64,000 nt of DNA from Candidatus Magasanikiibacteriota bacterium (lineage in GTDB: Bacteria; Patescibacteriota; Patescibacteriia; Magasanikbacterales; GWA2-37-8). Position 1 is the first letter of the stretch. Every line of letters begins with the position of its first letter. Under the pieces are notes generated by a model. It was not told the DNA's origin. It did not search any database and worked only from the letters and a program-made list of their open reading frames with translations. A program made the position numbers and the translations under genes. This document shows positions 1 to 46,827 of the stretch, piece after piece. The stretch lies in contig JACOYB010000004.1 of assembly GCA_016182085.1 (NCBI GenBank), positions 4,250 through 68,249 of the forward strand, given 5' to 3'.

Positions 1-22
1 ATTGGGGATAAGCCGGCTTGCC

Positions 23-47
23 AATAATACCCCCCTGGGGTATTATT
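23..47. promoter_or_regulatory. Perfect palindrome AATAATACCCC-cct-GGGGTATTATT (11-bp arms) immediately upstream of the csoR start; candidate CsoR autoregulatory operator
   Basis: Seen directly: reverse complement of 37-47 equals 23-33. G/C-tract palindromes of the TACCC..GGGTA type are the known operator class for CsoR-family repressors. Confidence 0.5.
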
Positions 48-55
48 ATATTTGT

Positions 56-328
56 ATGAAACCAATCCTAAAAAATAAACTGCTTAAACGCCTCAAAATT
101 ATTGAGGGGCAAATTCGCGGTTTGCAGGCTATGTTGGAAAATGGCACCTATTGCGTGGATGTTATTACCCAAGCCAGCGCCGTAAAAAAAGCCGTTTCCA
201 GTTTTGAGGATGCTTTGCTCGAAAGCCACTTATCTACCTGTGTGATAAATCAAATAAAATCCGGCCAGCACGCCAAAGCCGTTAATGAAGTAATGAAGGT
301 TTACAAATTGTCTAAAAAAGACAATTAA
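56..328 (+). CDS. csoR: CsoR/RcnR-family (DUF156) metal-sensing transcriptional repressor
   Basis: ~90 aa; the ..KKLLKRLKIIEGQIRGLQAMLENGTYCVDVITQASAV.. helix with the conserved Cys is typical of copper-sensitive operon repressors. Start taken at ATG 56 rather than the TTG at 2 so the operator stays upstream. Confidence 0.75.
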   Translation: MKPILKNKLLKRLKIIEGQIRGLQAMLENGTYCVDVITQASAVKKAVSSFEDALLESHLSTCVINQIKSGQHAKAVNEVMKVYKLSKKDN

Positions 329-342
329 GTTTTTATAGAATT

Positions 343-792
343 ATGCGTTTACAAACATTTTTAAAATTAATTTCCGGGTTAACGGCCGGCGTGATAATGG
401 CCGTAGCCCTGCTTATTTTTATTTGTCCCGGAGTTTTTATGTCTGATACCATGGTATCTAGTCCCGATATGGCCACGCCGTGTCAGAGCGATGTGGGTAT
501 GGCTGTTGGCGCCGTAGATTCCAGCGGCTGCACCAGTGTTCATTTGGCCCAGGCCCAGCGTTTTATTGGCAGCTTAGGCGGTGAAATGAGTTTGTTGTTA
601 GGAGCACTGCTTACTGTCACAGTTATTTATTTTATATCTCGGGCTGAATTTTTGAACCGGACACGCGCCGCCTTTGTCCGCTATAAATATTATTACCGGT
701 TATACTTTGCGTCCATTCGTTTACAATGCCAAAAAAAGACGATGGCTTGGCTGGCGCTGCTCAAAAATTACGAAACCGCTTCACTCGCTTAA
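343..792 (+). CDS. Hypothetical small membrane protein with Cys/Met-containing loop, in copper operon
   Basis: Two predicted TM segments; no recognisable family. Confidence 0.4.
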   Translation: MRLQTFLKLISGLTAGVIMAVALLIFICPGVFMSDTMVSSPDMATPCQSDVGMAVGAVDSSGCTSVHLAQAQRFIGSLGGEMSLLLGALLTVTVIYFISRAEFLNRTRAAFVRYKYYYRLYFASIRLQCQKKTMAWLALLKNYETASLA

Positions 793-891
793 GTTTTTGC
801 TAGCTTGAAAGGTTGGTAGCGTATTTAGATAGCGAAACTATATGGTGGAGTGATTTTTAATTTTATTTTTCTCTTAAAATTAGTTTATTAT

Positions 892-2214
892 ATGAACAAA
901 AAAACAATTCCTATTCGCGGCATGCACTGCGCTTCTTGCGAAATACTTGTGGGCGATGAATTAAAAAAAATCGCCGGGCTTAGCAGTGTTTATGTCAGCC
1001 AAAAAAGGGCTTTGGCGATAGTGAAATACCCGGAGGCAGCCCAGATAAATGATAATGATATTATTAAAGCCGTTCAAGAAGCCGGCTACGAAGTCGGACA
1101 GAAGGAAAAATTACCATGGATTTCTCGCAACGCCGCCGATTACAAAGATTTGGCGCGCGCTGCCGGAATTTTTTTGGTAATTTATTTGCTGGTCAGATGG
1201 TTTAATTTGTTTGATTTGGGTTTTAACACTCAAAGTTCCGGCGTAGCCGTGGCGCTGCTAGTCGGGCTGGTGGCCGGGGTATCAACTTGTATGGCGTTAA
1301 TTGGCGGTTTGGTGCTCAGTCTGTCGGCGCGGCATGCCGAACAGCACCCGGAAGCCACAACCTTGCAAAAATTTCGTCCGCATATCTATTTTAACATTGG
1401 TCGAATCTTAGGGTTTGCTGTTTTGGGCGGTTTAATCGGTCTTATCGGTCAAGCCTTCAAACCATCCAACAACTTGCTTGGACTTCTAACCGTGCTAATT
1501 GGCGGGGTAATGATATTCTTTGGTTTGAAGTTGATAGAAATTTTTCCGGCCTTACGCGACAAAAGCATCACTTTGCCATCGGGTATTGCCCGGTTTTTTG
1601 GATTAAAGAAAGAAGTAAAAGAATATAGCCACAAGGGCGCAATGGTAATGGGAGGGCTGACATTTTTCTTGCCTTGCGGTTTTACTCAAGCGATGCAGCT
1701 CTATGCGGTCTCTACCGGCAGTTTTTGGCAAGGCGCCGCAATTATGGGGCTGTTTGCTGTTGGCACCGCGCCCGGACTTCTTGGTATTGGTGGATTAACC
1801 TCGGTATTTAAAGGACGCAAGGCGCGCATATTTTTTATGACCGCCGGACTGACGGTAATTCTTTTGGGCTGGGTAAATATTGCCAATGGCAGCCGGCTAT
1901 TTGGCGCTCGCGTTGACAGTAAATCAGTTCCTGTAGTTACAGATCAAAACGCGCAAGAAGTGCGGATGACTCAAGGACGCACCGGTTACTCCCCAAATAT
2001 ATTTACCGTTAAAAAAGGCCAGCCGGTGAAATGGATAGTAAAATCAGAGACTTCTTTGTCCTGTGCGGCATATTTGGTAATGCCCAAATACGGCATCAGT
2101 AAAGCGCTTCAATCGGGAGAAAATATTATTAATTTTACACCCACCCAAGTTGGCGAAATTCCGTTCTCTTGTTCCATGGGGATGTATCGCGGAAAGTTTG
2201 TTGTGGTTGAATAA
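892..2214 (+). CDS. Fusion protein: N-terminal HMA (GMHCASC) domain, polytopic permease domain (DsbD_2/TauE-like, conserved Cys in TM helices), C-terminal cupredoxin_1-like domain
   Basis: MHCASCE heavy-metal-associated motif; ~8 hydrophobic helices with STCMAL and LPCGFTQ motifs; C-terminal ..KGQPVKWIVKSETSLSCAAY...FSCSMGMYRGKFVV resembles the cupredoxin-like copper-binding fold. Start at ATG 892. Confidence 0.65.
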   Translation: MNKKTIPIRGMHCASCEILVGDELKKIAGLSSVYVSQKRALAIVKYPEAAQINDNDIIKAVQEAGYEVGQKEKLPWISRNAADYKDLARAAGIFLVIYLLVRWFNLFDLGFNTQSSGVAVALLVGLVAGVSTCMALIGGLVLSLSARHAEQHPEATTLQKFRPHIYFNIGRILGFAVLGGLIGLIGQAFKPSNNLLGLLTVLIGGVMIFFGLKLIEIFPALRDKSITLPSGIARFFGLKKEVKEYSHKGAMVMGGLTFFLPCGFTQAMQLYAVSTGSFWQGAAIMGLFAVGTAPGLLGIGGLTSVFKGRKARIFFMTAGLTVILLGWVNIANGSRLFGARVDSKSVPVVTDQNAQEVRMTQGRTGYSPNIFTVKKGQPVKWIVKSETSLSCAAYLVMPKYGISKALQSGENIINFTPTQVGEIPFSCSMGMYRGKFVVVE

Positions 2215-2228
2215 TTAGAAATGATTAT

Positions 2229-2441
2229 ATGCCAAACCAAAAATTTGTTATTACTAATTTAACTTGCGCGGCTTGCGTAAAATTGTCCACCCTGGCGCTT
2301 AAAAAAATTCCGGGTGTAAGCGCAGCGGCAGTTGATCTTGCTACCGGCGCTGCCGAAATTACCGGCGACCGCGATGTGGCGTGGAAAGAAATTGAAGGAG
2401 CGCTTAAGAGCGTGGATAAAACCGCGGCTCAAATTACTTAA
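2229..2441 (+). CDS. copZ: Small HMA-domain metallochaperone (CopZ-like, CxxC = TCAAC)
   Basis: 70 aa; betaalphabetabetaalphabeta HMA pattern with CAAC. Confidence 0.6.
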
Positions 2442-2451
2442 TTTTAATTGT

Positions 2452-5214
2452 ATGGATAAAATCTTACTCAAAATTACAGGCATGCACTGTGAGTCGTGCG
2501 AAAAAATAATCGGCATGGAGCTGTCGGAAATAGCCGGCGTCAGTAATGTTAAAATAAATTTTGCGGCCGGGTCCGGAGAATTAGAAGCCTCCACCGAAGT
2601 ATCAAATGAAGCGATTGTTCAGGCGATTGTGAAGGCCGGGAATCAGGGAGAGGTGGTAAGTCGTATTAAAGAGCAAACTTCCTCTGTTCCAAATACATTT
2701 GAGAAAAATATCGTTTCCGGCAATCAACCATTTAAAGTAAAGATTGAAGTGACTGTAGAACCGGAAGGCGCTGTTGTTGGGAGCTCGTCCGCATATATCC
2801 CTCGGCCTGCGACAGAAAAAATTTCTAATCAAACAGCCCCAGGTTCTGCCGTAAAAGAGAAAAAAGAAGAACAAGTGCAACTAGCTCTTACCGGCATGCA
2901 TTGCGCGTCGTGCGCGGGTTTGATTGAACGAGGCTTAAAAAAAGTGGCGGGTGTAAAGAGTGCTAATGTTAATTTTGCGGTTGAAAAAGCGCGGGTGGTG
3001 TTTGATAATTCAGTCGCATCGGTAGAGCAGCTTATTGGGGCGGTAGAAAAATCCGGTTACAAAGCGCGGCTGGCCGGCACCGGCAATCCCGAGGAAGAAA
3101 GATTGCAGCGAGAAAATGTTATCAAAAGATACTGGCAAAAGTTTTTCTGGGGGCTTATCCTTAGTTTGCCGATGCTGTATTTCATGCTTCTGGATTTCTT
3201 TTCGTTTCTACCCAGCAGAACATTTCTTTTGCCGTATATTGGTATCGTATCGCTTATTCTTACCATTCCCGTACAATTTATTATCGGCGCGGGATTTTAT
3301 AAAGGAATGTGGAGCAGTCTGCGAATGAAAACGTTTAACATGGATAGTTTGATTGCTATCGGTACAAGCACCGCGTTTTTCTACAGCTTGGCGCAATTTA
3401 TTAACTATGTTGCGCGTACCGGCAGCGTGGTTGGTTTAAATGGCGCGAAAATTCCCGAATTATATTTTGAAACCGCCGCTTTTTTGATTACTTTTGTTAT
3501 TCTGGGCAAGTGGCTGGAAGCAAAAACAAAAGGGCGAACATCAGATGCTATAAAAAAATTGATGGGGCTTCAGGCTAAAACCGCGCGCGTGATGAAAAAT
3601 GGCGTGGCTTTGGATGTACCCATTGAACAGGTTGTGGCCGGCGATACAATTGTCGTCCGCCCGGGTGAAAAAATTCCGGTAGATGGCGCGGTAAGCAAGG
3701 GGCAGTCCAGCGTGGATGAATCTATGATTACGGGTGAAAGTATTCCGGTGGAAAAAAATATTGGTGACATGGTGATTGGTGCGACTATAAATAAACATGG
3801 CAGCTTTGAATTTACGGCCACCAAAGTGGGAAGCGAAACTATGCTGGCGCAAATTATTCGGGTGGTTGAAGAAGCGCAAGGATCTAAAGCGCCGATTCAA
3901 GCGTTTGCCGATAAAATTTCCGCCTACTTTGTGCCAATTGTTATTGGTTTAGCGGTGCTTACATTTTTGGTTTGGTATTTTGCTCTTGGCGCCAGCCTTA
4001 CTTTCGCGTTAATGGCTTTTACTTCGGTTATCGTTATTGCTTGTCCTTGCGCTTTGGGACTAGCCACGCCAACAGCCATTATGGTTGGTACGGGCAAGGG
4101 CGCCGAACATGGCATTCTTATCAAAGGCGGTGAGCCGCTGGAAGCCGCCTGCAAAATTAAAGCCGTAGTATTTGATAAAACAGGCACACTCACCAAAGGT
4201 CAGCCGGAAGTTACTGATGTGGTAAGCGCCGGTCTGTCTGATGAAGAAGAAATAATTCGTATCACCGCCAGTCTGGAAAAACTTTCCGAGCATCCGCTCG
4301 CGGACGCGATTGTTAAATATGCTGAAGAAGAATCCGTGCCGCTTAGCGAGGTGGCCGGTTTTCGCGCTATTCCCGGTCATGGTGTTGAGGGTGTATTAAA
4401 TAGCGTTAAATATTATTTTGGTAACCGTAAATTAGTGACGGATGTGGTTGGTATTTCCACAGTTGTTCTGGAAAAAGTGGAGCGTAAAATTCGCAAACTA
4501 GAAGAGAGCGGCAAGACGGTAATGATTTTGGCTTCAACCCAAGAAATTTTGGGATTGGTAGCGGTGGCCGATACGATAAAAGAAACAACCGTAGATGCGG
4601 TGCGCGCCTTACAAGAACAACACATCGAAGTCTTTATGATTACCGGCGATAATCGCCGCACAGCCGAAGCCATTGCTCGCCAGGCCGGAATAAAAAATGT
4701 CTTGGCGGAAGTATTGCCGGAAGACAAAGCTAATGAAGTCAAAAAATTACAGGGAACAGGTATTAAAGTGGCGATGGTGGGCGATGGAATCAACGACGCG
4801 CCCGCGCTGGCGCAAGCGGATTTGGGTATTGCCATGGGAAGCGGCACAGATGTGGCTATGGAAACGGGCGGAATTGTTATTATTAAAAATGATCTGCGTG
4901 ATGTACTTACGGCTATTAAACTGAGCCGTGAAACTATGAATAAAATTAAACAGAACATGTTTTTTGCCTTGTTCTATAATGTTATTGGTATTCCTATTGC
5001 CGCGCGCGTGTTTGTCGGTATTGGCATAGTGTTAAAACCGGAGTTGGCGGGTTTGGCCATGGCGCTTAGTTCAATATCGGTAGTCTCCAATTCTTTATTC
5101 TTGCGCGGATTCAAACCGGGCAAGCGTAACTGGCTGTCTATGGCCGCGCCGATAGTGATGGGATTACTATTTACCGCCATATTCTTTGTCTTTGCCCGGC
5201 TTAGCCGAATGTAG
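2452..5214 (+). CDS. copA: Copper-translocating P1B-type ATPase with two N-terminal HMA domains
   Basis: Two MHCxSC HMA domains; TGES actuator motif, CPC in TM6 ([12 protein letters not shown]), [16 protein letters not shown]1B signatures. Start at ATG 2452 ([16 protein letters not shown]); the upstream 2332-2451 part of the ORF overlaps copZ in another frame. Confidence 0.92.
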
Positions 5215-5277
5215 AATAATCGGAGTAGTGATACAATGTATACTAAGAAGTGTCTATAAAAGAAAGGATCTGGAAAT

Positions 5278-6390
5278 ATGAAAAAAGAAAAACAAATCAT
5301 TGAATCTTTGTTGGCCGGTACGGGAATTAAGATAAACGGAAACAATCCCTATGACCTGCAAGTACACAATGAAAATTTTTATGGCCGCTTATTGCGGTAT
5401 GGCTCATTAGGGCTCGGCGAGTCCTATATGGATGGCTGGTGGGATTGCGCCAGTCTTGATCAGTTTTTTCATAAAGTTCTGGAAGCTGATCTACACAGCC
5501 GAGTGAAAAACGATCTTGGCATCGCTCTAAAGATTGCTTTAAATTTTGTGTTGAATGTTGGCAGAAAGTCAAAAGCCTTTAAGAATGGAAGGCATTATGA
5601 TGCTGGCAATGATTTATATCGCGCGATGCTTGATAAGCGTTTAGCCTATACCTGCGGATATTGGAAAGATGCCGTTAATCTTGATGATGCGCAAGAAGCA
5701 AAACTTGATTTGGTCTGCAGAAAGATGGGCCTAAAACCCGGGCAAAAAATATTAGATATCGGTTCGGGCTGGGGGAGTTTTATGGGGTATGCGGCCGAAA
5801 AATACGGAGTAAATGCCGTTGGAGTTACTGTCTCAAAAGAACAAAAGGCGCTTGCGGATACTCTTTATAAAAATCTCCCCGTAGAAACGCGGCTGCAAGA
5901 TTATCGCGATATCAATGAAAAGTTTGACCAGGTAGTATCTTTAGGGATGTTTGAACATGTTGGATATAAGAATTATCGTACCTTTATGAAGGTCGCGCAT
6001 AGCTCTCTTAAAGACAACGGTTTATTTTTGTTGCACACTATCGGCGGCAATCATTCGGCGCGCATTACGGAGCCATGGATTGAAAAATATATTTTCCCCA
6101 ACTCCATGCTTCCCTCAATCAAGCAGATTGGCAAAGCTATTGAAGACCTATTTGTGATGGAAGATTGGCATAATTTTGGGGTTGATTATGACAAGACACT
6201 AATGGCTTGGTATAAGAATTTTGAAGATAATTGGGATAAAATAAAATCAAATTATGATGAAAGGTTTTATCGGATGTGGAAGTATTATCTTTTAGTCTCC
6301 GCCGGAAGCTTCCGAGCCAGAACAAATCAATTATGGCAGATTGTCTTGTCTAAAAAAGGGGTTCCTGGGGGGTATATATCAGTTAGGTAA
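5278..6390 (+). CDS. cfa: Cyclopropane-fatty-acyl-phospholipid synthase family SAM-dependent methyltransferase
   Basis: Full-length match to CFA synthase architecture (LDIGSGWGS SAM motif, conserved C-terminal region). Confidence 0.8.
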   Translation: MKKEKQIIESLLAGTGIKINGNNPYDLQVHNENFYGRLLRYGSLGLGESYMDGWWDCASLDQFFHKVLEADLHSRVKNDLGIALKIALNFVLNVGRKSKAFKNGRHYDAGNDLYRAMLDKRLAYTCGYWKDAVNLDDAQEAKLDLVCRKMGLKPGQKILDIGSGWGSFMGYAAEKYGVNAVGVTVSKEQKALADTLYKNLPVETRLQDYRDINEKFDQVVSLGMFEHVGYKNYRTFMKVAHSSLKDNGLFLLHTIGGNHSARITEPWIEKYIFPNSMLPSIKQIGKAIEDLFVMEDWHNFGVDYDKTLMAWYKNFEDNWDKIKSNYDERFYRMWKYYLLVSAGSFRARTNQLWQIVLSKKGVPGGYISVR

Positions 6391-6440
6391 ATGGTAAAGA
6401 TAAAAAGATTGTAAATAATTTATAGAGTATTTATTATTTT

Positions 6441-8507
6441 ATGCCAGAAAACCTTCACGGAGAGCATGCCGGCCACGATATGCAAAAGATGAGCCATATG
6501 GATCACGAAGCGGCCATGACCAATCCGCAAATGGCCAAGCAGATGGAAGCGGATATGCGCCGCCGCTTCTGGGTTTCTTTGTTTCTTTCTGTGCCGATTT
6601 TTTTGTACTCACCGGTCGGCGTTAATATATTTAAATTTAATTTGCCAACACCACTTCCCGTAAATTGGCTGCTTTTTATTCTCACTACCCCGATAGTTTT
6701 TTGGACAGGTTCTATTTTTATCACTGGTACATACTATTCTCTTAAAAGTAGAAAACTCAACATGTCGGTGCTTATTGCCACCGGCGTATTGGCCGCGTAT
6801 TTATTTAGCGTTCTGCTTACTTTTACTATTGGCGGCGAAACATTCTACGAAGCCGCGGCGCTACTGGTAACATTTGTATTATTTGGCCATTGGATGGAGA
6901 TGAAATCACGGCGCGGTACGTCTGATGCGTTGCGAGCCTTGTTTGATTTGGTGCCGCCAAAAGCCAATGTTGTTCGCGGAGGCAAAGAAATAAACATCAC
7001 CAGCGCGGAAATAGTCCAGGGCGACATTGTCGTGCTTCGGCCCGGCGACAAAGTGCCGGTGGATGGTGAAATCACCGAAGGCGAAACTTCTATTGATGAA
7101 TCACTTATTACCGGAGAATCTATTCCAGTTACTAAAACTATCGGAGCAAAAGTGGTGGGTGGATCGGTGAATCTTACCGGTATCGCGCAATTTAAAGCTA
7201 CAAAGGTTGGGTCGGAAACGGTGTTGGCCCAGATTATAAAAATGGTAGAGACTGCGCAGAACTCCAAAGCTCCCGGTCAGCGCATAGCCGACAAAGCCGC
7301 CGGCTGGCTAGTTATTCTTGCTATTGGCTCGGGGCTGGCTGCGTTTTTTGGCTGGTATGTTGGCGCAGGCGTGGGTCTTTTGGCCGCTCTCACTTTTGCA
7401 GTATCAACTGTGGTGATTGCCTGTCCGGATGCTTTGGGGCTCGCCACCCCGACAGCGGTCGCTGTGGGAACCGGCATTGGCGCAAAATATAATATTTTAA
7501 TAAAAGATGCCGCTACTTTGGAAAATACATCTCGGCTAACAGCCATTGTTTTGGATAAAACCGGCACTCTTACAGAAGGAAAACCAAAAGTCACCGAGGT
7601 TGTTGTGCGATCGGGATACGATCACCACGAAGTTTTATCGCTTGCTGCCTCGGCAGAGCGAGGTTCAAATCATCCTATTAGCGCCGCTATTTTAGAAGAA
7701 GCAAAAAAGAATGGGTTGGATGCAAACGAAAAGGTAGAAAAATTTGAATCAATTGGCGGCCATGGCGTAAGGGCTGTTATAAATGGCAAAGTTATTATTG
7801 CCGGCACGGAGCGGCTTATGCAACAAAATAATATTGATCTTTCTCCGATCAAAAAAGAAATTGACCGTTTGCTTAGTACCGGTAATACCATTAGTATTGT
7901 TGCTATTGATGGGCAAGTGGCGGGTGCTATCGGGGTGGCGGACACTCTTAGGCCTTCGGCGAAAAAAACTATCTCGGCGCTCCAGTCGCTTGGGCTGGAA
8001 GTGGCGATGATTACCGGCGATCATGAACAGGTGGCAAAAGCGGTATCAGATGAACTTGGCATAAATCGCTATTTCGCACAGGTGTTGCCGGAAGACAAGG
8101 CAAAATATGTAAAAAAACTTCAGGATGAAGGCAAATTTGTGGCAATGGTCGGAGATGGAATCAATGACGCTCCGGCACTCGCGCAGTCAAATATCGGCAT
8201 TGCCATCGGCGCCGGTACGGATGTGGCGATTGAAACAGGTAATATCGTGCTTATGAAATCAGATCCGTATGATATTGTGGCCGCCCTTCGTTTGAGCAAG
8301 GCAACGGTAGTAAAAATGAAACAGAATTTATTTTGGGCGGCGATATACAACGTGCTGGCCATTCCGGTTGCGGCCGGCGTGTTTTATAACTCATTAGGTT
8401 GGTCGTTGCGTCCGGAAATCTCCGCGCTTTTAATGTCAGCATCGTCTATTATTGTCGCCACTAACGCCGTGTTGTTGAAGCGAGTTGAATCCAAATTAAA
8501 AATTTAA
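6441..8507 (+). CDS. Second heavy-metal P1B-type ATPase, CopB-like (His/Met-rich N-terminus, no HMA domain), with unusual CPD transmembrane motif
   Basis: N-terminus HGEHAGHDMQKMSHMDHEAAMTNPQMAKQMEADM; [19 protein letters not shown] present; TM6 reads ACPDALGLATP (codons TGT CCG GAT). Confidence 0.85.
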   Translation: MPENLHGEHAGHDMQKMSHMDHEAAMTNPQMAKQMEADMRRRFWVSLFLSVPIFLYSPVGVNIFKFNLPTPLPVNWLLFILTTPIVFWTGSIFITGTYYSLKSRKLNMSVLIATGVLAAYLFSVLLTFTIGGETFYEAAALLVTFVLFGHWMEMKSRRGTSDALRALFDLVPPKANVVRGGKEINITSAEIVQGDIVVLRPGDKVPVDGEITEGETSIDESLITGESIPVTKTIGAKVVGGSVNLTGIAQFKATKVGSETVLAQIIKMVETAQNSKAPGQRIADKAAGWLVILAIGSGLAAFFGWYVGAGVGLLAALTFAVSTVVIACPDALGLATPTAVAVGTGIGAKYNILIKDAATLENTSRLTAIVLDKTGTLTEGKPKVTEVVVRSGYDHHEVLSLAASAERGSNHPISAAILEEAKKNGLDANEKVEKFESIGGHGVRAVINGKVIIAGTERLMQQNNIDLSPIKKEIDRLLSTGNTISIVAIDGQVAGAIGVADTLRPSAKKTISALQSLGLEVAMITGDHEQVAKAVSDELGINRYFAQVLPEDKAKYVKKLQDEGKFVAMVGDGINDAPALAQSNIGIAIGAGTDVAIETGNIVLMKSDPYDIVAALRLSKATVVKMKQNLFWAAIYNVLAIPVAAGVFYNSLGWSLRPEISALLMSASSIIVATNAVLLKRVESKLKI

Positions 8508-8543
8508 ATAATTTATAAAGGCCATTTTAGTAAATTAAAAAAT

Positions 8544-8571
8544 AATCACGATTAAGCCGTGATTGTTTTTT
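8544..8571 (+). terminator. Rho-independent terminator after the second ATPase
   Basis: aatcacg-attaagc-cgtgatt hairpin followed by TTTTTT. Confidence 0.55.
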
Positions 8572-8624
8572 AATCCACCTGCAGTCGCTCTACCACCGGT
8601 TGTGAAGGGGTTGAACATTGGCGG

Positions 8625-8653
8625 TTGACAAAAACCGGATTTTATACTATTAT
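8625..8653 (+). promoter_or_regulatory. Sigma70-like promoter TTGACA-17-TATTAT driving the GC-rich ORF at 8817
   Basis: Consensus -35 at 8625-8630, 17-nt spacer, -10 at 8648-8653. Confidence 0.5.
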
Positions 8654-8816: not shown

Positions 8817-9305
8817 ATGGTAATGGCAATCGACTTCTTGCTTTCGGCCGCCCACCTCAAGCGTGAACTTGGCGAGGAGCTGTTCGAGGCTTTGGTCAGC
8901 TCGAACAACACTGCGGCAGTTCGCAAATTCGCGGAGGAGCTCGTCAAGTTGGGACCCCCCACTGAGATGACCCTCGGCGATCGCGCCTACGACATTCTCG
9001 GCATCCTCAAGGGAGACGAGAAGTCGGTCATCGGCCATACGATGGTCAGCCGCGCCAAGGAGCAGAACGCCCACAACGGGAAGGAAGAGCGAGAGCACGT
9101 CCTAAAGTATCAGGACCAGATTCCCGCCGCCCTCCGCGGCAAGGTCGTCCTCGTCTTCACCGACGACAGGCACCCCGACGACCCCGAGGGCGTCTACTGC
9201 GTTGGCTGGGACGGCAAGCGCTGGGTCAAGGACTGGCGCTGGCTCGACTTTGACGACTGGCGCGGCCGCTATCGGGTTCTCCGTCGCAAGTCCCCGCAGC
9301 CCTAG
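8817..9305 (+). CDS. Hypothetical protein, GC-rich (about 62% GC, strong GC3 bias), probably horizontally acquired
   Basis: Strong SD GAGGAGG 9 nt before ATG 8817; codon usage (CTC/GTC/GGC/CGC) unlike neighbouring genes; no recognisable domain (C-terminal W/D/R-rich). Confidence 0.6.
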   Translation: MVMAIDFLLSAAHLKRELGEELFEALVSSNNTAAVRKFAEELVKLGPPTEMTLGDRAYDILGILKGDEKSVIGHTMVSRAKEQNAHNGKEEREHVLKYQDQIPAALRGKVVLVFTDDRHPDDPEGVYCVGWDGKRWVKDWRWLDFDDWRGRYRVLRRKSPQP

Positions 9306-9388
9306 AATTCTTAGTCGCTCAGAACTTTCGGGTTCTGTGCTCACTTGATCCCTTCGGCTCGCCTGCCGTCAGGCAGGCTCGCAAAAAT

Positions 9389-9426
9389 GCCCACCCTGGG
9401 AAACTAGGGTGGGCAAATTATTTTTT
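9389..9426 (+). terminator. Rho-independent terminator
   Basis: gcccaccctgg-gaaact-agggtgggc hairpin then aaattatttttt; preceded by a second hairpin gcctgcc-gtca-ggcaggc. Confidence 0.6.
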
Positions 9427-24587: not shown

Positions 24588-24661
24588 GTCGGGGTAGTGG
24601 GACTTGAACCCACAATCCCCTGCTCCCAAAGCAGGTGCTCTAGCCAATTGAGCCATACCCC
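24588..24661 (-). tRNA. tRNA-Pro (anticodon TGG)
   Basis: Cloverleaf on reverse complement: CGGGGTA acceptor, D arm, anticodon loop tTTGGGa, T arm GTGGGTTCAAGTCCCAC. Confidence 0.85.
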
Positions 24662-24673
24662 GTTTATATTATC

Positions 24674-24746
24674 TCGTGCCGCGAGTCAGAGTCGAACTGA
24701 CCACGCCAGCCTCTTCAGGGCTGCGCTCTACCGATGAGCTATCGCG
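24674..24746 (-). tRNA. tRNA-Phe (anticodon GAA)
   Basis: Reverse complement GCCGCGATAGCTCATCGGTAGAGC..CTGAAGA..GGTCAGTTCGACTCTGAC..CGCGGCA folds as canonical tRNA. Confidence 0.85.
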
Positions 24747-24752
24747 GCTTAT

Positions 24753-24989
24753 TTATATCCTATTTTTTAAAAATCGTCTACCGAAACCAGTTTTGAAATA
24801 TTTTTCCCTGGCCAGTGCTTTATTTTTAGATAAACACGCTTCGTAATATACCAATTGAAGTGGTCGTCTAGCTAATGTGGCCGGCACATGTCCGTCACAG
24901 TGTTCTTTGAATCTAATCTTTAAATTTTCGCTATATCCAATGTAAAGTTTGCTATCTTTTAAGCTTTTTAATACATAAGTATAGTGCAT
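24753..24989 (-). CDS. GIY-YIG nuclease family protein (UPF0213-like, 79 aa) inserted between tRNA-Phe and tRNA-Ala
   Basis: MHYTYVLKSLKDSKLYIGYSENLKIRFKEH...RPLQLVYYEAC matches GIY-YIG motif; start at ATG 24989 (upstream part of the ORF is tRNA/repeat sequence). Confidence 0.7.
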   Translation of the reverse strand: MHYTYVLKSLKDSKLYIGYSENLKIRFKEHCDGHVPATLARRPLQLVYYEACLSKNKALAREKYFKTGFGRRFLKNRI

Positions 24990-25055
24990 ATTAATGTGGC
25001 TGCGCTCCCGCGCCCGCAACGCCTGAGCAAGCTCAAGCTTGCGATGGCGGGCGGG

Positions 25056-25077
25056 TACCGATGAGCTATCGCGGCTT
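25056..25077. repeat. 22-bp direct repeat duplicating the 5' end of tRNA-Phe plus 3 flanking nt; together with 24727-24748 it brackets the GIY-YIG gene
   Basis: TACCGATGAGCTATCGCGGCTT identical at both sites. Confidence 0.7.
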
Positions 25078-25080
25078 TTG

Positions 25081-25153
25081 TGGACCCTATCGGGCTCGAA
25101 CCGATCACCCCCGCGTTGCAAACGCGGTGCTCTACCAAATGAGCTAAGGGCCC
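25081..25153 (-). tRNA. tRNA-Ala (anticodon TGC)
   Basis: Reverse complement GGGCCCTTAGCTCATTTGGTAGAGC..TTTGCAA..GGTTCGAGCCC..AGGGTCCA; G3:U70 Ala identity pair present. Confidence 0.85.
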
Positions 25154-41688: not shown

Positions 41689-44600
41689 ATGCGCGGAGGG
41701 AAATTTCGTCTTTGTCGTGGCTCGGTCACGATTTTTTTGGTTTTTACTGTTGGTATCCTCGTGGCGGGAGTGCTGGCGGTAGTTTTGGTGTTGCGACCAA
41801 AAACATCGGTGCCGGACAAGGGTTTGCCAGGGATATCTAAAACAATGGGCGGATTTGTGAAGACGCCAATTGGCGCAGCTACGCCGTCAGTTAAATTGGA
41901 AAGCCGTGTGCTTGAATTGACACCGGCGACAACTAAAACATTTTTAACGGAATTGGCGCAATCTGATAAATCAACGCAGCATGTCTATGTCCGCTTGGCG
42001 CGGTATCCGCAACTGGTTGATCGGGATACGTTGGAAAAAGCCGGAGTGACGCTTCTGGATTTTCTCGGCCAGCGCGTGTATATGGCCGTTGTTTCTGGTA
42101 AATTCACGGTTGATGATTTGGGCAAACAGCCGCTGGTTGAGGCCTTGGCAAAGATTGAGGATGCCGATAAAGCTCATCAAGATATTTGGAAAGAGAGATT
42201 TTTTGTTTTTGTCGTTAAACCGGGAGAAGATGAAAATGAGCCGGAGATTAATTATGTGCAAAATTCCGACGGTACGTTGAATTTAACGGTAGAATTTTTT
42301 GCCGATGTGGCCGCATCAGTCGCGAGAAATATTTTACAGGACGCTGGCGGCGCTAGAAGCGCCATGGGGCGTGGGCTGTGGGAAGTGAAATCAGCGCCCG
42401 CCTCGGCTGTTCGTCGGTTGGCTGCTTACGATGCAGTGAAACGTGTTGATCCGGGTCCGGCGCCATTTATGGCGGACAACAATCGCAGCCGCGCCGCGCT
42501 TAATGTTGATACCGTGCAGAATTTCACCACGGCCACCAATGTTTTTGGCGGTTTGAGCGGTTTGGGCGTGCAAGCGATTATTTTTGAAAGCATGATGGAT
42601 GAAACGCATGATGATTTTAGTTTGCTTGATGCCGCTAATAATATTATCGGCAGTCGGGTTGCCCGCCATCAGCCATCGGCGCATGCTACTCATGGCAGTC
42701 ATGCTACGCATGTGGCGGGTATTGTCGGCGGCAACGGGTTTATGAGTACAAGCACTATTATTGTTCAATGTCCGGGGACACCGGCGGTCAGCGGCACCCC
42801 TTGGCTGTTCCGCGGCATGGCACCACAGGCCACGCTTCTTGATTATGCCAGTTGGGAACGGACGCCAGACGGCATTCTTGATGCGGTTGCTAATTTTGGC
42901 ACCGAGTTGTCCAATAATTCATACTCAATTACATATGACGGGGATTATAGCGCCGCTATGCAAATCAACGACCGGCTGATCCGCGGTTCGGCCGTTTCAT
43001 CAGGGGGCGTAGCAGTGCCAGGCCGATCGATGATGTTTTCGGCAGGTAATCATGGATCCTATACATATAACGGCGGCGAGCAGGTTGGCTATTTTGCTCT
43101 GACTAAACAAAATAAAAATGACACCATGGTGGGGAATTGGAATGCCTGTGGCGCTACGCTGGCCGGTGGCAACATTGGTACCAGTATGGGTCCTGCTTAT
43201 GACGGGCGTATCAAGCCGGATGTGGTTGCTTCGGGCAGCTATGTTATATCCACGCAAAGCAACAATAATGGTTACACCAACAAATCAGGAACCTCAATGG
43301 CTACTCCGGCAGTGACTGGCGTCAGCGCGCTAGTTCTACAACAATACGCCACGACTTATGGTGTCAATCTTGATGTGAATCCGCCGCGTCCTTCAACTAT
43401 TAAAGCAGTATTAGTTAATACCGCAACTGATATTGACTGGGCAACGGCCGCGCCCGCCGGCTATGTTTATCCGCCCGCCGGCGGTATAACTGGCTGCGCT
43501 CCCGGGCTTCTCAATAATCCGGCATTTTGCGTGGGTGACGGCCCGGTGGTTTTCTTTCCCGGTCCTGACTTTGCGACTGGTTGGGGCATGGTTAACGCCC
43601 AAGCCGCGGTGAATGCGGTGGCGGCGCAAACTTTATTTGAAGATCAGATCGATGTGACTGGACAATTCCGTGGCATACAGTTTAGCGTTGCTTCGGGTAC
43701 AACCAATATGCGCATGACGCTGGCCTGGGATGATGTGGAAGGCAGTCCCGCAATTCTCGATACGAGCCCGCACTTGGTTAATGATCTTGATCTTGAGCTG
43801 ACTGACCCGGCCGGAGTCGTGTTTTACCCTTGGCAGTTGAATCAAGCCATTGCTGATGTTGCGGGTGTGCCATTGCCTAATGAACAGCAATATCCTGGTA
43901 CCGGTATCGTAATTACCACTGCGTTGGCACCGACAGCCGCGCCTATTGACTGCGATGGCAGCGCTGCTGATCCGAATCCATGCATACCCCAGAACGACTA
44001 TCCGGGCACCATTCCGGTAGCGCCCGCCGGCCAGGGGCGTGATCACCTCAACAATGTCGAGCAAGTATTTGTCTCGGCGCCGGTTGCCGGCACGTGGAAC
44101 TTGCGCGTTACCGGCTTCCAGATCCCTGATCCGGCTAATCCCCAGCCATACTCCATCGCCGGTTTGTCGGCCGCCGGCAATGCCTGGCCTGACCTGACGC
44201 CGATTGGCGATGTAACTATTGATGAAGGCGCGACCATGATTATTCCAATTACCGCCGTTGATCCCGAAGGCACGCCAATCACGCTTACCGCCAGCGGTCT
44301 GCCACCGTTTGCCGCCTTTGCCGATTTGGGTGGTGGCGCCGGCACGCTTACTCTGACACCAAGTTGCACTGACACTGGCGTCTATCGCGGTCTGGCTATC
44401 ATTGCTACTGATGGCGGCGCGCCGATAAAATATGAAGGCCAATATATAACCATTACCGTTAATCCGGCCAACTGCGCTCCGGCTATTGATCCGGTTGCCG
44501 ATGTGACTATTACCGAAGGCGATACACTTGATGTGCCGGTGAGCGCTACCGATCCGGAAGGCGATGCGTTGGTTTTGGCCGCTCCTGATTTGCCGCCGTT

Positions 44601-46827
44601 TGCCGCCTTTGCGCCAACAGGTCCGGGTACCGGGGCAATAAATTTGGCGCCAAGTTGCAGTGATGCCGGTGTTTATGCAGACCGGACGATTACTGCCACC
44701 GATAGTGGCGCTCCACCCCAGACAATGACTGAACTCTTTACGATTACCGTCGACGATGATTTGGTTCCGGTGGCTAATGCCGGAGCGGACATCGTTACGT
44801 ACAGCGCCATGGCTACCGTACTCAACGGCGCCGCCAGTAGCGATCCGGAGGCCAAGCCATTGACCTATAGTTGGGCACAGACCGCGGGTACACCGGTGGT
44901 TCTGGCCGGCCTCGATACAGCCACGCCGAGCTTTACGGCACCAACGGTCGCCGCCAGCGAAACGCTTACCTTCACCGTAACCGTTACCGATTCGTGCGCG
45001 CAACCTGCCGCCGACACTGTCGTTGTGACTGTCCGTCCGCTCGTTGATGCTTCTATTATCCTCGATCGTTCCGGCAGTATGATGTGGCCTGTGCCGGCCG
45101 AGGGCGGCGGCACCATTACCAAGATGAACTCATTAAAAAATTCGGTCAATCTTTTCCTCTCGCTCTTTGTTAATGAACGCCCGGGCGCGCCTGATAAGCT
45201 CGGTATTGTTAAGTTTGCCGACAACACGGCGGCGGATACGCAAACAATCCGTCCGCTGGCCGATGTCGAACCGGCGGACATAGCGCCTGCCGGCGCCGTG
45301 AGCGCGCTGATTTCCGGTCTGACCACCGATGCGACCACGTGGATTCGCGGCGGTCTTAATCTTGGATTGGCGGAACTGTTCGGTCCGGCCGGAGTAGCCA
45401 GTCACAAAAAAGCGATGGTACTCTTCTCCGACGGCAAAGAAAATGAATCGCCTTTGACGCAGGATCCGCCGCCGGCGCCGGATGGGGTTTTAAGCGATCC
45501 TGATTTTATCAGTACGTCAGTATATGCGGTCGGCTTTGGCGTCGCTGGCGCGGCCGGCGATACCGGTATTGATGAGGCGCTCTTAACCACCATTCAAAAC
45601 GTCGGTGCCGCCGATGGTTTCGTCAATGTTACCGCCGAGCCGTTGGCGCTTACCAAGTTCTTTGTTGAGGCGTTGGCCACCATGTTCGATCAAACCATAT
45701 CGCTTGATCCGGTGACCACGTTATCCGGAGCCGGGTCATCGTTCCAGTCGGCTACCATCAGTAGCGCCGATCGCCAGGCCACGTTCGTGCTTACTTGGAA
45801 TCAGCCGCAGACCGATGCGCTCGACCTTAAACTGCGTACGCCCGAAGGTGAACTGATTACTACCGCCGACGCCGCGCCGGGAACACCGATTGAATATGTG
45901 AGTGGCGCGACGTTCAAGTACTTTATCGTGCGTTTTCCGCTTACCGGTCGTTTGCGCGGCATTCACGCCGGCACTTGGCAGATGGAAGTCAGTCGCAATC
46001 AGGCGCCCGCCAATCAGCTGGCGACCTTTGCCACGGCGGTCATGGTAGATAGTCCTAGTTTGCGCTGGATGCCTTCAATACCATCATCTATGCTGTTTAC
46101 CGGGGATGAATTCGGCATCCGGACATCGCTGCTTGAAAACGGCAAGCCGATTGCCAATGCCAAAGTGTTTGCCGACATTGAACGCCCAATAGTCAACCCG
46201 CATCAGGTTGTGGTCACGGCCAAGCTCGATCCGCGCCAAGCGTATATTCCATCTGTTCTCAAAACCGATCCGCCGTCGCCGTATGACCAGAAATTGCTTC
46301 AGATTATTAAAAACGCCCGCGGTAAAAATCCATTTCCTGTGAGCAAGGAGCGGGTGCAACTCTTTGATGACGGTAAGCATAATGATGGCAAAGCGAACGA
46401 TGGCACGTATGGCGCCAATCTAACTAAAACCAATGTTGGCGGTGTCTACCGCATTCATCTGCGCGCCCAAGGTAAAAGTTCGCAGTACGGGGCATTTACC
46501 CGTGAGTCCAGCCGGAGTATTACCGCTATCATCAAAGCTAGTCCCAAGGCATCGAATGTTACCATTGCGCCGATTACCAAAGCTTCAGCCCGTGGGACCA
46601 TATACCAATTGACGGTGACACCGAAAGACAGCCAAGGAAACATAGTTGGCGCTGGCTATGCTAGTATGGTTAAAGTAAGTGGCGCCGATATCAAGCCGAT
46701 TGAAGCGGTAGAAGACAAGACCAATGGCAGTTACACACTGCGTTTTACGGCCGACCCGCGGGCCATTCTGACTGTCCGGTTTGGTGATGAGAAGCTTGCC
46801 AGTATGGTAGTTGAAAAATCTCAATAG
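41689..46827 (+). CDS. Giant (1712 aa) secreted subtilisin-like serine protease (S8) with cadherin-like/Ig-like repeats and a von Willebrand factor A domain
   Basis: Signal/TM; HGSHATHVAGIVGG (His) and GTSMATPAVTG (Ser) motifs; three ~90-aa repeats (DPEGTPITLTASGLPPFAAF..); VDASIILDRSGSM vWA MIDAS motif. Confidence 0.85.
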   Translation: MRGGKFRLCRGSVTIFLVFTVGILVAGVLAVVLVLRPKTSVPDKGLPGISKTMGGFVKTPIGAATPSVKLESRVLELTPATTKTFLTELAQSDKSTQHVYVRLARYPQLVDRDTLEKAGVTLLDFLGQRVYMAVVSGKFTVDDLGKQPLVEALAKIEDADKAHQDIWKERFFVFVVKPGEDENEPEINYVQNSDGTLNLTVEFFADVAASVARNILQDAGGARSAMGRGLWEVKSAPASAVRRLAAYDAVKRVDPGPAPFMADNNRSRAALNVDTVQNFTTATNVFGGLSGLGVQAIIFESMMDETHDDFSLLDAANNIIGSRVARHQPSAHATHGSHATHVAGIVGGNGFMSTSTIIVQCPGTPAVSGTPWLFRGMAPQATLLDYASWERTPDGILDAVANFGTELSNNSYSITYDGDYSAAMQINDRLIRGSAVSSGGVAVPGRSMMFSAGNHGSYTYNGGEQVGYFALTKQNKNDTMVGNWNACGATLAGGNIGTSMGPAYDGRIKPDVVASGSYVISTQSNNNGYTNKSGTSMATPAVTGVSALVLQQYATTYGVNLDVNPPRPSTIKAVLVNTATDIDWATAAPAGYVYPPAGGITGCAPGLLNNPAFCVGDGPVVFFPGPDFATGWGMVNAQAAVNAVAAQTLFEDQIDVTGQFRGIQFSVASGTTNMRMTLAWDDVEGSPAILDTSPHLVNDLDLELTDPAGVVFYPWQLNQAIADVAGVPLPNEQQYPGTGIVITTALAPTAAPIDCDGSAADPNPCIPQNDYPGTIPVAPAGQGRDHLNNVEQVFVSAPVAGTWNLRVTGFQIPDPANPQPYSIAGLSAAGNAWPDLTPIGDVTIDEGATMIIPITAVDPEGTPITLTASGLPPFAAFADLGGGAGTLTLTPSCTDTGVYRGLAIIATDGGAPIKYEGQYITITVNPANCAPAIDPVADVTITEGDTLDVPVSATDPEGDALVLAAPDLPPFAAFAPTGPGTGAINLAPSCSDAGVYADRTITATDSGAPPQTMTELFTITVDDDLVPVANAGADIVTYSAMATVLNGAASSDPEAKPLTYSWAQTAGTPVVLAGLDTATPSFTAPTVAASETLTFTVTVTDSCAQPAADTVVVTVRPLVDASIILDRSGSMMWPVPAEGGGTITKMNSLKNSVNLFLSLFVNERPGAPDKLGIVKFADNTAADTQTIRPLADVEPADIAPAGAVSALISGLTTDATTWIRGGLNLGLAELFGPAGVASHKKAMVLFSDGKENESPLTQDPPPAPDGVLSDPDFISTSVYAVGFGVAGAAGDTGIDEALLTTIQNVGAADGFVNVTAEPLALTKFFVEALATMFDQTISLDPVTTLSGAGSSFQSATISSADRQATFVLTWNQPQTDALDLKLRTPEGELITTADAAPGTPIEYVSGATFKYFIVRFPLTGRLRGIHAGTWQMEVSRNQAPANQLATFATAVMVDSPSLRWMPSIPSSMLFTGDEFGIRTSLLENGKPIANAKVFADIERPIVNPHQVVVTAKLDPRQAYIPSVLKTDPPSPYDQKLLQIIKNARGKNPFPVSKERVQLFDDGKHNDGKANDGTYGANLTKTNVGGVYRIHLRAQGKSSQYGAFTRESSRSITAIIKASPKASNVTIAPITKASARGTIYQLTVTPKDSQGNIVGAGYASMVKVSGADIKPIEAVEDKTNGSYTLRFTADPRAILTVRFGDEKLASMVVEKSQ

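Follow-up and report, generated by a model that had tools for sequence, protein, structure and literature searches.

A CsoR-headed copper gene block in a Patescibacterial genome, with a three-domain membrane fusion, a cyclopropane-fatty-acid synthase gene and a second P1B pump

Among the closest described systems, the CsoR operons of Bacillus subtilis (csoR, copZA) and Mycobacterium tuberculosis (cso operon) combine an autoregulated repressor carrying a Cys-His-Cys (C-H-C) ligand set, a GC-rich palindromic operator lying over the promoter, and a CopZ chaperone with a CPC-type CopA pump. The copper-derepressed copY-cupA-copA operon of Streptococcus pneumoniae encodes, directly 5′ of its CopA pump, a domain of cupredoxin-like fold with Cys...Cys-x-Met-x-Met ligands (CupA, 4F2E; CopA domain, 4F2F). 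Here we describe a gene block in which counterparts of both arrangements, in part predicted, stand side by side. It occupies positions 1-8600 of a 64-kb stretch of DNA from Candidatus Magasanikiibacteriota bacterium (assembly GCA_016182085.1, contig JACOYB010000004.1, positions 4,250 to 68,249 of the forward strand), which was analyzed at its full length and is called the window. We hold with moderate confidence that this block works as a CsoR-controlled copper-tolerance operon that brings together copper efflux, a relay through a three-domain fusion protein, an accessory membrane protein and a cyclopropane-fatty-acyl-phospholipid synthase gene (cfa); that its core is a copper operon we consider highly likely.

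Layout and predicted regulation of the copper block

Seven open reading frames (ORFs), all in one direction, were read on the + strand of the window between 56 and 8507, and every gene in the inventory of a first-pass annotation, made from the sequence alone, was found in its place. The features of the block are as follows (nt, nucleotides; aa, amino acids).

18-46, + strand: predicted sigma-70-like promoter, -35 TTGCCA at 18-23, 17-nt spacer, -10 TATTAT at 41-46 (consensus scan 10/12)
23-47, unstranded: CsoR operator, AATAATACCCC-CCT-GGGGTATTATT, exact 11-nt arms at 23-33 and 37-47, 3-nt spacer
56-328, + strand: csoR, 90 aa (PF02583, 3e-26)
343-792, + strand: gene for a 149-aa membrane protein, no Pfam or NCBIfam family
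892-2214, + strand: fusion gene, 440 aa (HMA 7.7e-10, DsbD_2 6.2e-31, Cupredoxin_1 1.7e-9)
2229-2441, + strand: copZ-like gene, 70 aa, motif LTCAAC (HMA PF00403, 3.6e-9)
2452-5214, + strand: copA, 920 aa (TIGR01511, 619 bits against a cutoff of 397)
5278-6390, + strand: cfa, 370 aa (NF008686, 584 bits against a cutoff of 400; PF02353, 3.9e-88)
6441-8507, + strand: second P1B ATPase gene, 688 aa (TIGR01511, 566 bits against a cutoff of 397)
8534-8575, unstranded: hairpin closing the block, with flanking A- and T-runs (dG -17.5 kcal/mol, z -6.78)

From csoR to the second pump the genes are separated by 14, 99, 14, 10, 63 and 50 nt, and no terminator-like site was predicted in any of these six gaps. 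Given the single operator, the lack of an internal terminator and the short intergenic gaps, one CsoR-controlled operon is the simplest reading, and the seven genes would then share a transcript. The closing hairpin, which none of 200 shuffles matched in folding, is probably a bidirectional intrinsic terminator, so that the end proposed for the block, 8572, was aptly placed; at the other end only the edge of the window truncates it. Short assemblies of related samples add 202 nt to the left of the window and place the end of msrB (SelR domain, 2e-18) 13 nt 5′ of the window start. Records from a Candidatus Magasanikbacteria metagenome-assembled genome include proteins identical to the fusion, Cfa and the second pump (P0001, P0121 and P0277), which confirms that the DNA is Patescibacterial. 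The HMA, cupredoxin, DsbD_2 and P1B signatures on which the copper interpretation depended were all recovered above curated thresholds.

The csoR product matches PF02583 at 92 bits (cutoff 22.8) and, in an alignment of 60 CsoR homologues, carries the ligand fingerprint x-C33-H58-C62, whose spacings of 25 and 4 residues are those of M. tuberculosis C36/H61/C65. Its operator is the perfect palindrome that had been claimed and fills the 17-nt spacer of the csoR promoter between the -35 and -10 elements, i.e., a palindromic GC-tract operator overlapping its own promoter, as in the CsoR family. The string TACCCC-N3-GGGGTA is present as a single copy in the window (expected 0.00 from dinucleotide shuffles), and 2.26 Mb of sequence, comprising the window and related loci, holds it 39 times, with 22 copies at the 5′ end of a csoR gene; we therefore regard it as a conserved operator. 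No further box was detected in the window before the fusion gene, cfa or the second pump, with up to 3 mismatches allowed.

The csoR ATG (56) begins 9 nt beyond the end of the -10 element, so that the transcript would be nearly leaderless. No Shine-Dalgarno sequence precedes this ATG, a -10-like TATTAT ends 3 nt 5′ of the second-pump ATG (6441), and translation of csoR and the second pump may be leaderless or nearly so. Variation was also seen in the regulator itself. A Cys-His-His form of the fingerprint occurs in 21 of the 60 CsoR homologues and is common in Patescibacterial copper islands, where it is carried by all cfa-linked csoR genes of six loci (L087, L089, L090, L092, L171 and L173), of which at least L087, L090, L171 and L173 have the same TACCCC-N3-GGGGTA box; the window CsoR, unlike these, is C-H-C.

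Under low copper, CsoR would sit on TACCCC-N3-GGGGTA within its own promoter spacer and block transcription. Binding of Cu(I) at Cys33, His58 and Cys62 would free the repressor from DNA, and transcription, once derepressed, would most likely cover all seven genes and stop at the 8534-8575 hairpin. CopZ would then load Cu(I) from the cytoplasm onto the CopA HMA domains for export, with the second pump, which has a CPD motif, acting as another exporter.

The proteins assigned to this route differ in how closely they follow known families. CopA has two N-terminal HMA domains, CPC in transmembrane helix 4 (TM4), YN(x)4P, MALSS and DKTGT, which bears out its initial description as a CPC-type pump with two HMA domains and by which it is classed as a P1B-1 Cu(I) exporter. 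The CopZ-like protein has an HMA domain and C-A-A-C, and reaches 42 bits with the best NCBIfam CopZ model, whose cutoff is 85. For the 149-aa protein no match was found in Pfam or NCBIfam, and its family is very small (36 cluster representatives among 1.84 billion proteins). Alignment and hydropathy give it two transmembrane helices, the first ending in I-C-P, and a basic cytoplasmic tail, and in the predicted topology the conserved residues of the outer loop are two more Cys and one His; we propose that it is an accessory outer-face membrane protein with a Cys3/His set.

To place the block among related genomes, the fusion was used as the anchor of a scan of one genome per species, with synteny counted in the best 80 fusion loci. 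The fusion is present in at least 592 species genomes. The best 80 carry mostly Patescibacterial names from many classes, and about one-third have other labels, mainly "uncultured Gammaproteobacteria bacterium". Next to the fusion gene, copA lies 3′ in 72 of the 80 loci and csoR 5′ in 50. A copZ-like gene separates the fusion gene from copA in 43 loci, 15 have a pump of the second type close by, and the 149-aa protein gene is found in 11, in most of these between csoR and the fusion gene. The commonest orders are csoR > fusion > copA and csoR > (149-aa protein) > fusion > copZ > copA. Overall, Patescibacteria have csoR > fusion > (copZ) > copA as their usual copper operon, and the first impression of an unusually elaborate copper system does not hold. 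A search of the available literature returned no paper on the fusion, on copper handling or copper operons in Patescibacteria, or on cfa in copper regulons.

The fusion protein

The proposed division of the fusion into HMA, permease and cupredoxin-like parts was confirmed, with all three domains over Pfam gathering scores.

904-1092, + strand: HMA domain, MHCxxC, predicted cytoplasmic
1252-1872 (Pfam match), + strand: DsbD_2 core, seven transmembrane helices with TM0 upstream of the match, Cys133 (STCM) and Cys262 (PCG)
1942-2205, + strand: CupA-type cupredoxin domain, Cys391 and C427-S-M-G-M431, predicted extracytoplasmic

In sequence, the C-terminal domain is similar to CupA of S. pneumoniae (3.9e-12) and to the metal-binding domain, also of cupredoxin type, in CopA of the same species (6.7e-9), and the CupA ligands Cys...Cys-x-Met-x-Met align with C391, C427, M429 and M431, which identifies it as CupA-type. 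Across 71 sequences of the fusion family, the HMA H-C-x-x-C and all outer Cys and Met ligands are invariant, and so are S-T-C in core helix 1 and P-C-G-F-T-Q in core helix 4. A structure model and the hydropathy profile both give seven membrane helices, and the loops assigned to the inside hold 18 Lys and Arg residues against 4 in those assigned to the outside; from this charge distribution, the HMA domain is predicted to lie inside and the CupA-like domain outside the cell. The cupredoxin-like ectodomain of the initial description thus stands as to fold and predicted location, but not as a type-1 copper domain: a blue-copper cupredoxin was ruled out, as residues 351-440 contain no His and the best relatives are CupA. 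The public name of the fusion, "sulfite exporter TauE/SafE family protein", was likewise rejected: PF01925 gave no match, and only DsbD_2, HMA and Cupredoxin_1 were found at E ≤ 0.01, so that the name appears to be an unsupported misnomer.

Homologues of the fusion also vary in architecture. Many are about 585 aa long, with an extra Cys/Gly-rich linker (e.g., CGGGGGCGCGGG) and a second cupredoxin-like domain, G-C-M-S ... T-C-A-M-G, on the outer side (for instance P0033, P0036 and P0064; alignment columns ~470-631). The CupA-like domain is a separate gene beside the pump in some genomes, for instance at L171.

We tentatively suggest, as a reading that may well be right but falls a little short of probable, that the fusion is a paired-thiol Cu(I) relay or an outer-face copper holder working with CopZ and CopA. 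As a conserved partner of CopA, it would offer Cu(I) three thiolate stations across the membrane, namely the cytoplasmic HMA CxxC, the two invariant Cys of the DsbD_2 core and the outward CupA-type Cys/Met site. It could hold Cu(I) at the outer face or hand it over there, and movement in either direction would be compatible with this arrangement.

The same thiol pairs could carry electrons instead of metal. As a reductant shuttle of the DsbD/CcdA/ScsB kind, the fusion would pass reducing power from the HMA CxxC through the membrane Cys to the outer Cys pair and so maintain reduced thiols at the surface while copper catalyses incorrect disulfide formation. Its core is indeed Pfam DsbD_2 (6.2e-31) with one Cys in each half (C133 and C262, both invariant), and each module has exactly one invariant Cys pair, like DsbD alpha, beta and gamma. 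In addition, pairs of CcdA and Redoxin genes recur in the Patescibacterial metal islands (L087, L091, L171, L173 and L179), which shows that reductant export belongs to the response. However, the domain search found no thioredoxin fold in the fusion, both of its soluble domains have folds established as Cu(I)-binding, the HMA motif is the copper-type M-H-C-x-x-C, and the two methionines of CxMxM are invariant although useless to a disulfide relay. Separate CcdA/Redoxin pairs already lie in the same CsoR islands (L091 has both), so that the fusion would not be needed for this purpose, and we consider a reductant shuttle unlikely.

A third possibility is that metal flows inward. In the manner of the MerP > MerT > NmerA route, the outer Cys/Met site would pick up Cu(I) at the surface, or alternatively Hg(II)/Ag(I), the membrane Cys would pass it inward to the HMA domain, and CopZ and CopA would then deal with it. 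This is prompted by relatives of 27% identity on Tsukamurella and Deinococcus plasmids, in which DsbD_2 and cupredoxin are joined, HMA is a separate adjoining gene, and the neighbors include merA, merB, a MerR-type regulator, a P1B ATPase and a multicopper oxidase. The fusion also has no energy-coupling domain, and a downhill path toward high-affinity cytoplasmic thiols would be easier to drive. Nevertheless, uptake under a repressor released by copper, followed by export, would be a futile cycle; the partner of the Patescibacterial fusion is a copper exporter, not a reductase; and the relatives from mercury clusters are remote and without a fused HMA domain. Import by the fusion therefore seems improbable to us.

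The plasmid relatives are of interest in themselves. At both L175 (Tsukamurella plasmid) and L176 (Deinococcus plasmid), the DsbD_2-cupredoxin gene is followed by a small HMA gene and is annotated "sulfite exporter TauE/SafE", with merA or merB, MerR-type regulators, a P1B ATPase, a multicopper oxidase and a CcdA/TlpA pair nearby. These proteins may be unrecognized transporters of mercury or copper resistance clusters.

The second pump and cfa

The N-terminus of the second pump has 5 His and 8 Met in its first 40 residues and no HMA match, as expected of a CopB-type protein, and its membrane motifs are CPD in TM4, YN(x)4P, and MSASS in TM6. Its initial designation as CopB-like is thus borne out by the His-rich, HMA-free N-terminus and fails on the motifs, since CPD instead of CPH and MSASS instead of MSxST rule out a canonical CopB (P1B-3). 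Among its best 120 homologues, CPD is present in all 120, and is therefore not a sequencing error, and MSASS in 115. Most homologues also have an N-terminal HMBD zinc-ribbon, which the window copy lacks. One in-silico analysis reports CPD in three Rhizobiales pumps as a novel P1B-3 subtype (PMC5552934), the only mention of it that our literature search found. The second pump is best described as belonging to a conserved, uncharacterized CPD-type subtype related to CopB.

The homologues (P0278-P0396) come from Wildermuth-, Kaiser-, Adler-, Lloyd-, Yanofsky- and Colwellbacteria, among others, and are 78-90% identical across many Patescibacterial classes. This identity is far above expectation for such distant lineages and suggests that the island moves horizontally within the group.

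Copper is favored as the metal of this pump because the copper model TIGR01511 (566 bits) outscores the Cd/Zn model TIGR01512 (379 bits), because its closest solved relatives are CopA pumps, and because CPD pumps have their own CsoR box in the relatives L061 and L173. It is thus probably a second, copper-specific exporter. Alternatively, the Asp of CPD, a hard ligand, could shift its preference to harder ions, for example Zn(II), Cd(II) or Pb(II), which would make the block a multi-metal island; the membrane site of ZntA uses Asp, and no member of the CPD subtype has been characterized. Set against the model scores, the solved relatives, the retained copper-type YN(x)4P and MxxSS, and the CsoR-type box and regulator of the relatives at L061 and L173, we give a non-copper pump only a small chance.

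The gene between the two pumps is a cyclopropane-fatty-acyl-phospholipid synthase gene, as first proposed: its product matches the equivalog model NF008686 over residues 3-368 of 370. Homologues of 72-81% identity are common across many Patescibacterial classes. In the operon reading, Cfa would convert double bonds of membrane phospholipids, in place, to cyclopropane rings, and such a membrane would be less permeable and less prone to copper-driven oxidation. A functional rationale comes from Escherichia coli, where a mutant with more unsaturated acyl chains was more copper-sensitive, and one with fewer such chains was more copper-resistant and showed less lipid peroxidation (PMC13104621).

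We evaluated the association of cfa with copper genes across loci with at least 3 kb of flank, counting a locus as linked when csoR, a P1B pump or the fusion lay within 8 kb. In the high-similarity, Patescibacterial group 7 of 14 cfa loci were linked, as compared to 2 of 51 in the lower-similarity group (mean flank 11 kb in both; Fisher p = 1.4e-4). When eight Cfa homologue loci were looked up, chosen by available sequence length only, a csoR gene and a P1B pump lay within 8 kb of cfa in five. Two loci from a metagenome scan, L091 and L092, have the order copA ... cfa ... CPD pump, the same as the window. The pump beside cfa is CPD in the window, L089, L091, L092 and L173, CPH in L087, and CPC in L090 and L171. 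Gene order differs among these loci as well, which makes one inherited accident less likely. A compact gene string headed by the box and csoR encloses cfa in L087, L171 and L173.

Several observations weigh against the explanation of the block as a whole. For the fusion, the model of the membrane part is of low confidence in places (pLDDT 38-65), and no solved structure, CcdA and DsbD included, matches this part by sequence; its core family is named for thiol-disulfide electron transfer, its distant homologues occur in mercury-resistance clusters, and pneumococcal CupA faces the cytoplasm whereas the CupA-like domain here is predicted to face outward. That the CPD pump moves copper is a prediction. 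As to transcription, weak promoter-like hexamers precede both cfa (5192-5220, and a candidate promoter of its own, TG-n-TACAAT, near 5229-5237, with a good Shine-Dalgarno sequence after it) and the gene of the second pump (6409-6437), neither with a CsoR box, so that both genes may have separate transcripts that are insensitive to copper. Finally, cfa is missing from all 80 fusion-centered loci and from two further CPD-pump islands (L178 and L179), and the loci that have it may not be phylogenetically independent.

The absence of cfa from those loci, together with its promoter-like and ribosome-binding sites and the lack of a CsoR box, would also fit a cfa that is a passenger, brought between the pumps by rearrangement or island shuffling, expressed from its own promoter and unrelated to copper. 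Island content varies widely, and transfer between Patescibacterial classes seems to occur, judging by the 78-90% identity of the pump; in 3 of the 14 close loci, moreover, cfa has housekeeping genes as neighbors. On the other hand, the excess of copper genes at close over distant loci was obtained with equal flanks, the positive loci differ in gene order and in pump type, and three of them hold cfa in a compact csoR-headed string. A mere passenger is therefore, in our view, a lesser but real possibility. The suggested coupling of cfa to copper thus gains comparative support from the linkage among close homologues and is weakened by its absence from the fusion-centered and additional CPD-pump loci; cfa is a frequent but optional cargo of variable copper islands and not a fixed component.

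Wider context of the block and comparison with known systems

Patescibacteria are thought to take lipids from their hosts and to be unable to make their own fatty acids. The strongest form of the copper-tolerance reading is that the fusion is a new ATP-independent mover or parker of Cu(I) and a universal partner of Patescibacterial CopA, and that cfa is a genuine member of the CsoR regulon that defends the cell by cyclopropanating borrowed phospholipids; we regard this combined claim as doubtful.

Other genes recur as variable cargo in CsoR-led islands (L087, L091, L171, L173, L178 and L179), with CcdA (DsbD_TM) and Redoxin pairs among them. Further cargo includes membrane proteins with a Lycopene_cyc domain directly 5′ of cfa, ABC1 kinases, ICMT/PEMT-like methyltransferases, YHS and HMBD mini-proteins, YgaP-like transmembrane proteins, MacB-type ABC pumps and multicopper oxidases.

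Elsewhere in the window, a 162-aa ORF (8817-9305, + strand) directly after the copper block has 62% GC and 83% GC at third codon positions against a regional 39-47% GC. A promoter-like site (8625-8653) lies before it and a hairpin (9388-9415) after it. No family in Pfam or NCBIfam matches it, its one homologue, at L057, is weak (24 bits), and it looks like a recent foreign acquisition. A 1712-aa ORF (41689-46827, + strand), along which GC rises to 52-58%, matches Peptidase_S8, PKD-like and, weakly, VWA domains, and is a giant subtilase-like surface protein. Ribosomal RNA was rejected as the cause of the high-GC stretch at 42-46 kb, since Rfam gives only three tRNAs in the window, which form a cluster at 24588-25153 (- strand; Pro-TGG, Phe-GAA and Ala-TGC).

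One uncharacterized family, currently filed as "sulfite exporter", forms the conserved core of Patescibacterial copper operons, and the metal-binding or Cys-pair site in each of its modules allows clear mutational tests. The CPD pump adds a second abundant, uncharacterized family. The recurrence of cfa in copper islands offers a testable link between copper stress and lipid remodeling, which would be notable given the presumed lack of fatty-acid synthesis. Taken together, these results extend current models and correct one annotation, and overturn none.

Compared to the CsoR operons of B. subtilis and M. tuberculosis, the window string adds the fusion, the 149-aa Cys-rich membrane protein, cfa and the CPD pump, and its csoR transcript is predicted to be nearly leaderless. 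It differs from the S. pneumoniae operon in its regulator (CsoR instead of CopY) and in the N-terminus of CopA, which has HMA domains in place of a cupredoxin domain. CupA itself is a cytoplasmic protein with one N-terminal membrane anchor, whereas the related domain in the window stands behind an HMA domain and a seven-helix DsbD_2 core. With DsbD, CcdA and ScsB, the fusion shares the DsbD_2 fold family, one Cys per core half and soluble Cys-pair domains on both sides, and it departs from them in having Cu(I)-binding folds instead of a thioredoxin fold. What it has in common with MerP-MerT-NmerA is a soft metal passing between paired thiols, from outer domain to membrane Cys to cytoplasmic HMA, as the importer model would have it; unlike in that system, the membrane fold is different, the outer domain is a cupredoxin and not an HMA domain, and the context of the Patescibacterial fusion is copper efflux, not reduction. 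The second pump resembles the CopB (P1B-3) proteins of Enterococcus hirae and Archaeoglobus fulgidus in its His/Met-rich N-terminus without HMA, its YN(x)4P in TM5 and its M-S-x-S-(S/T) in TM6, and is set apart from them by CPD in TM4 and by the MSASS form of the TM6 motif. Finally, Cfa is like its E. coli counterpart in its full-length, equivalog-level match (NF008686). The E. coli gene is under the control of RpoS and small RNAs and has no link to metal genes, whereas the window cfa, along with half of its close Patescibacterial relatives, lies inside a CsoR/P1B island.

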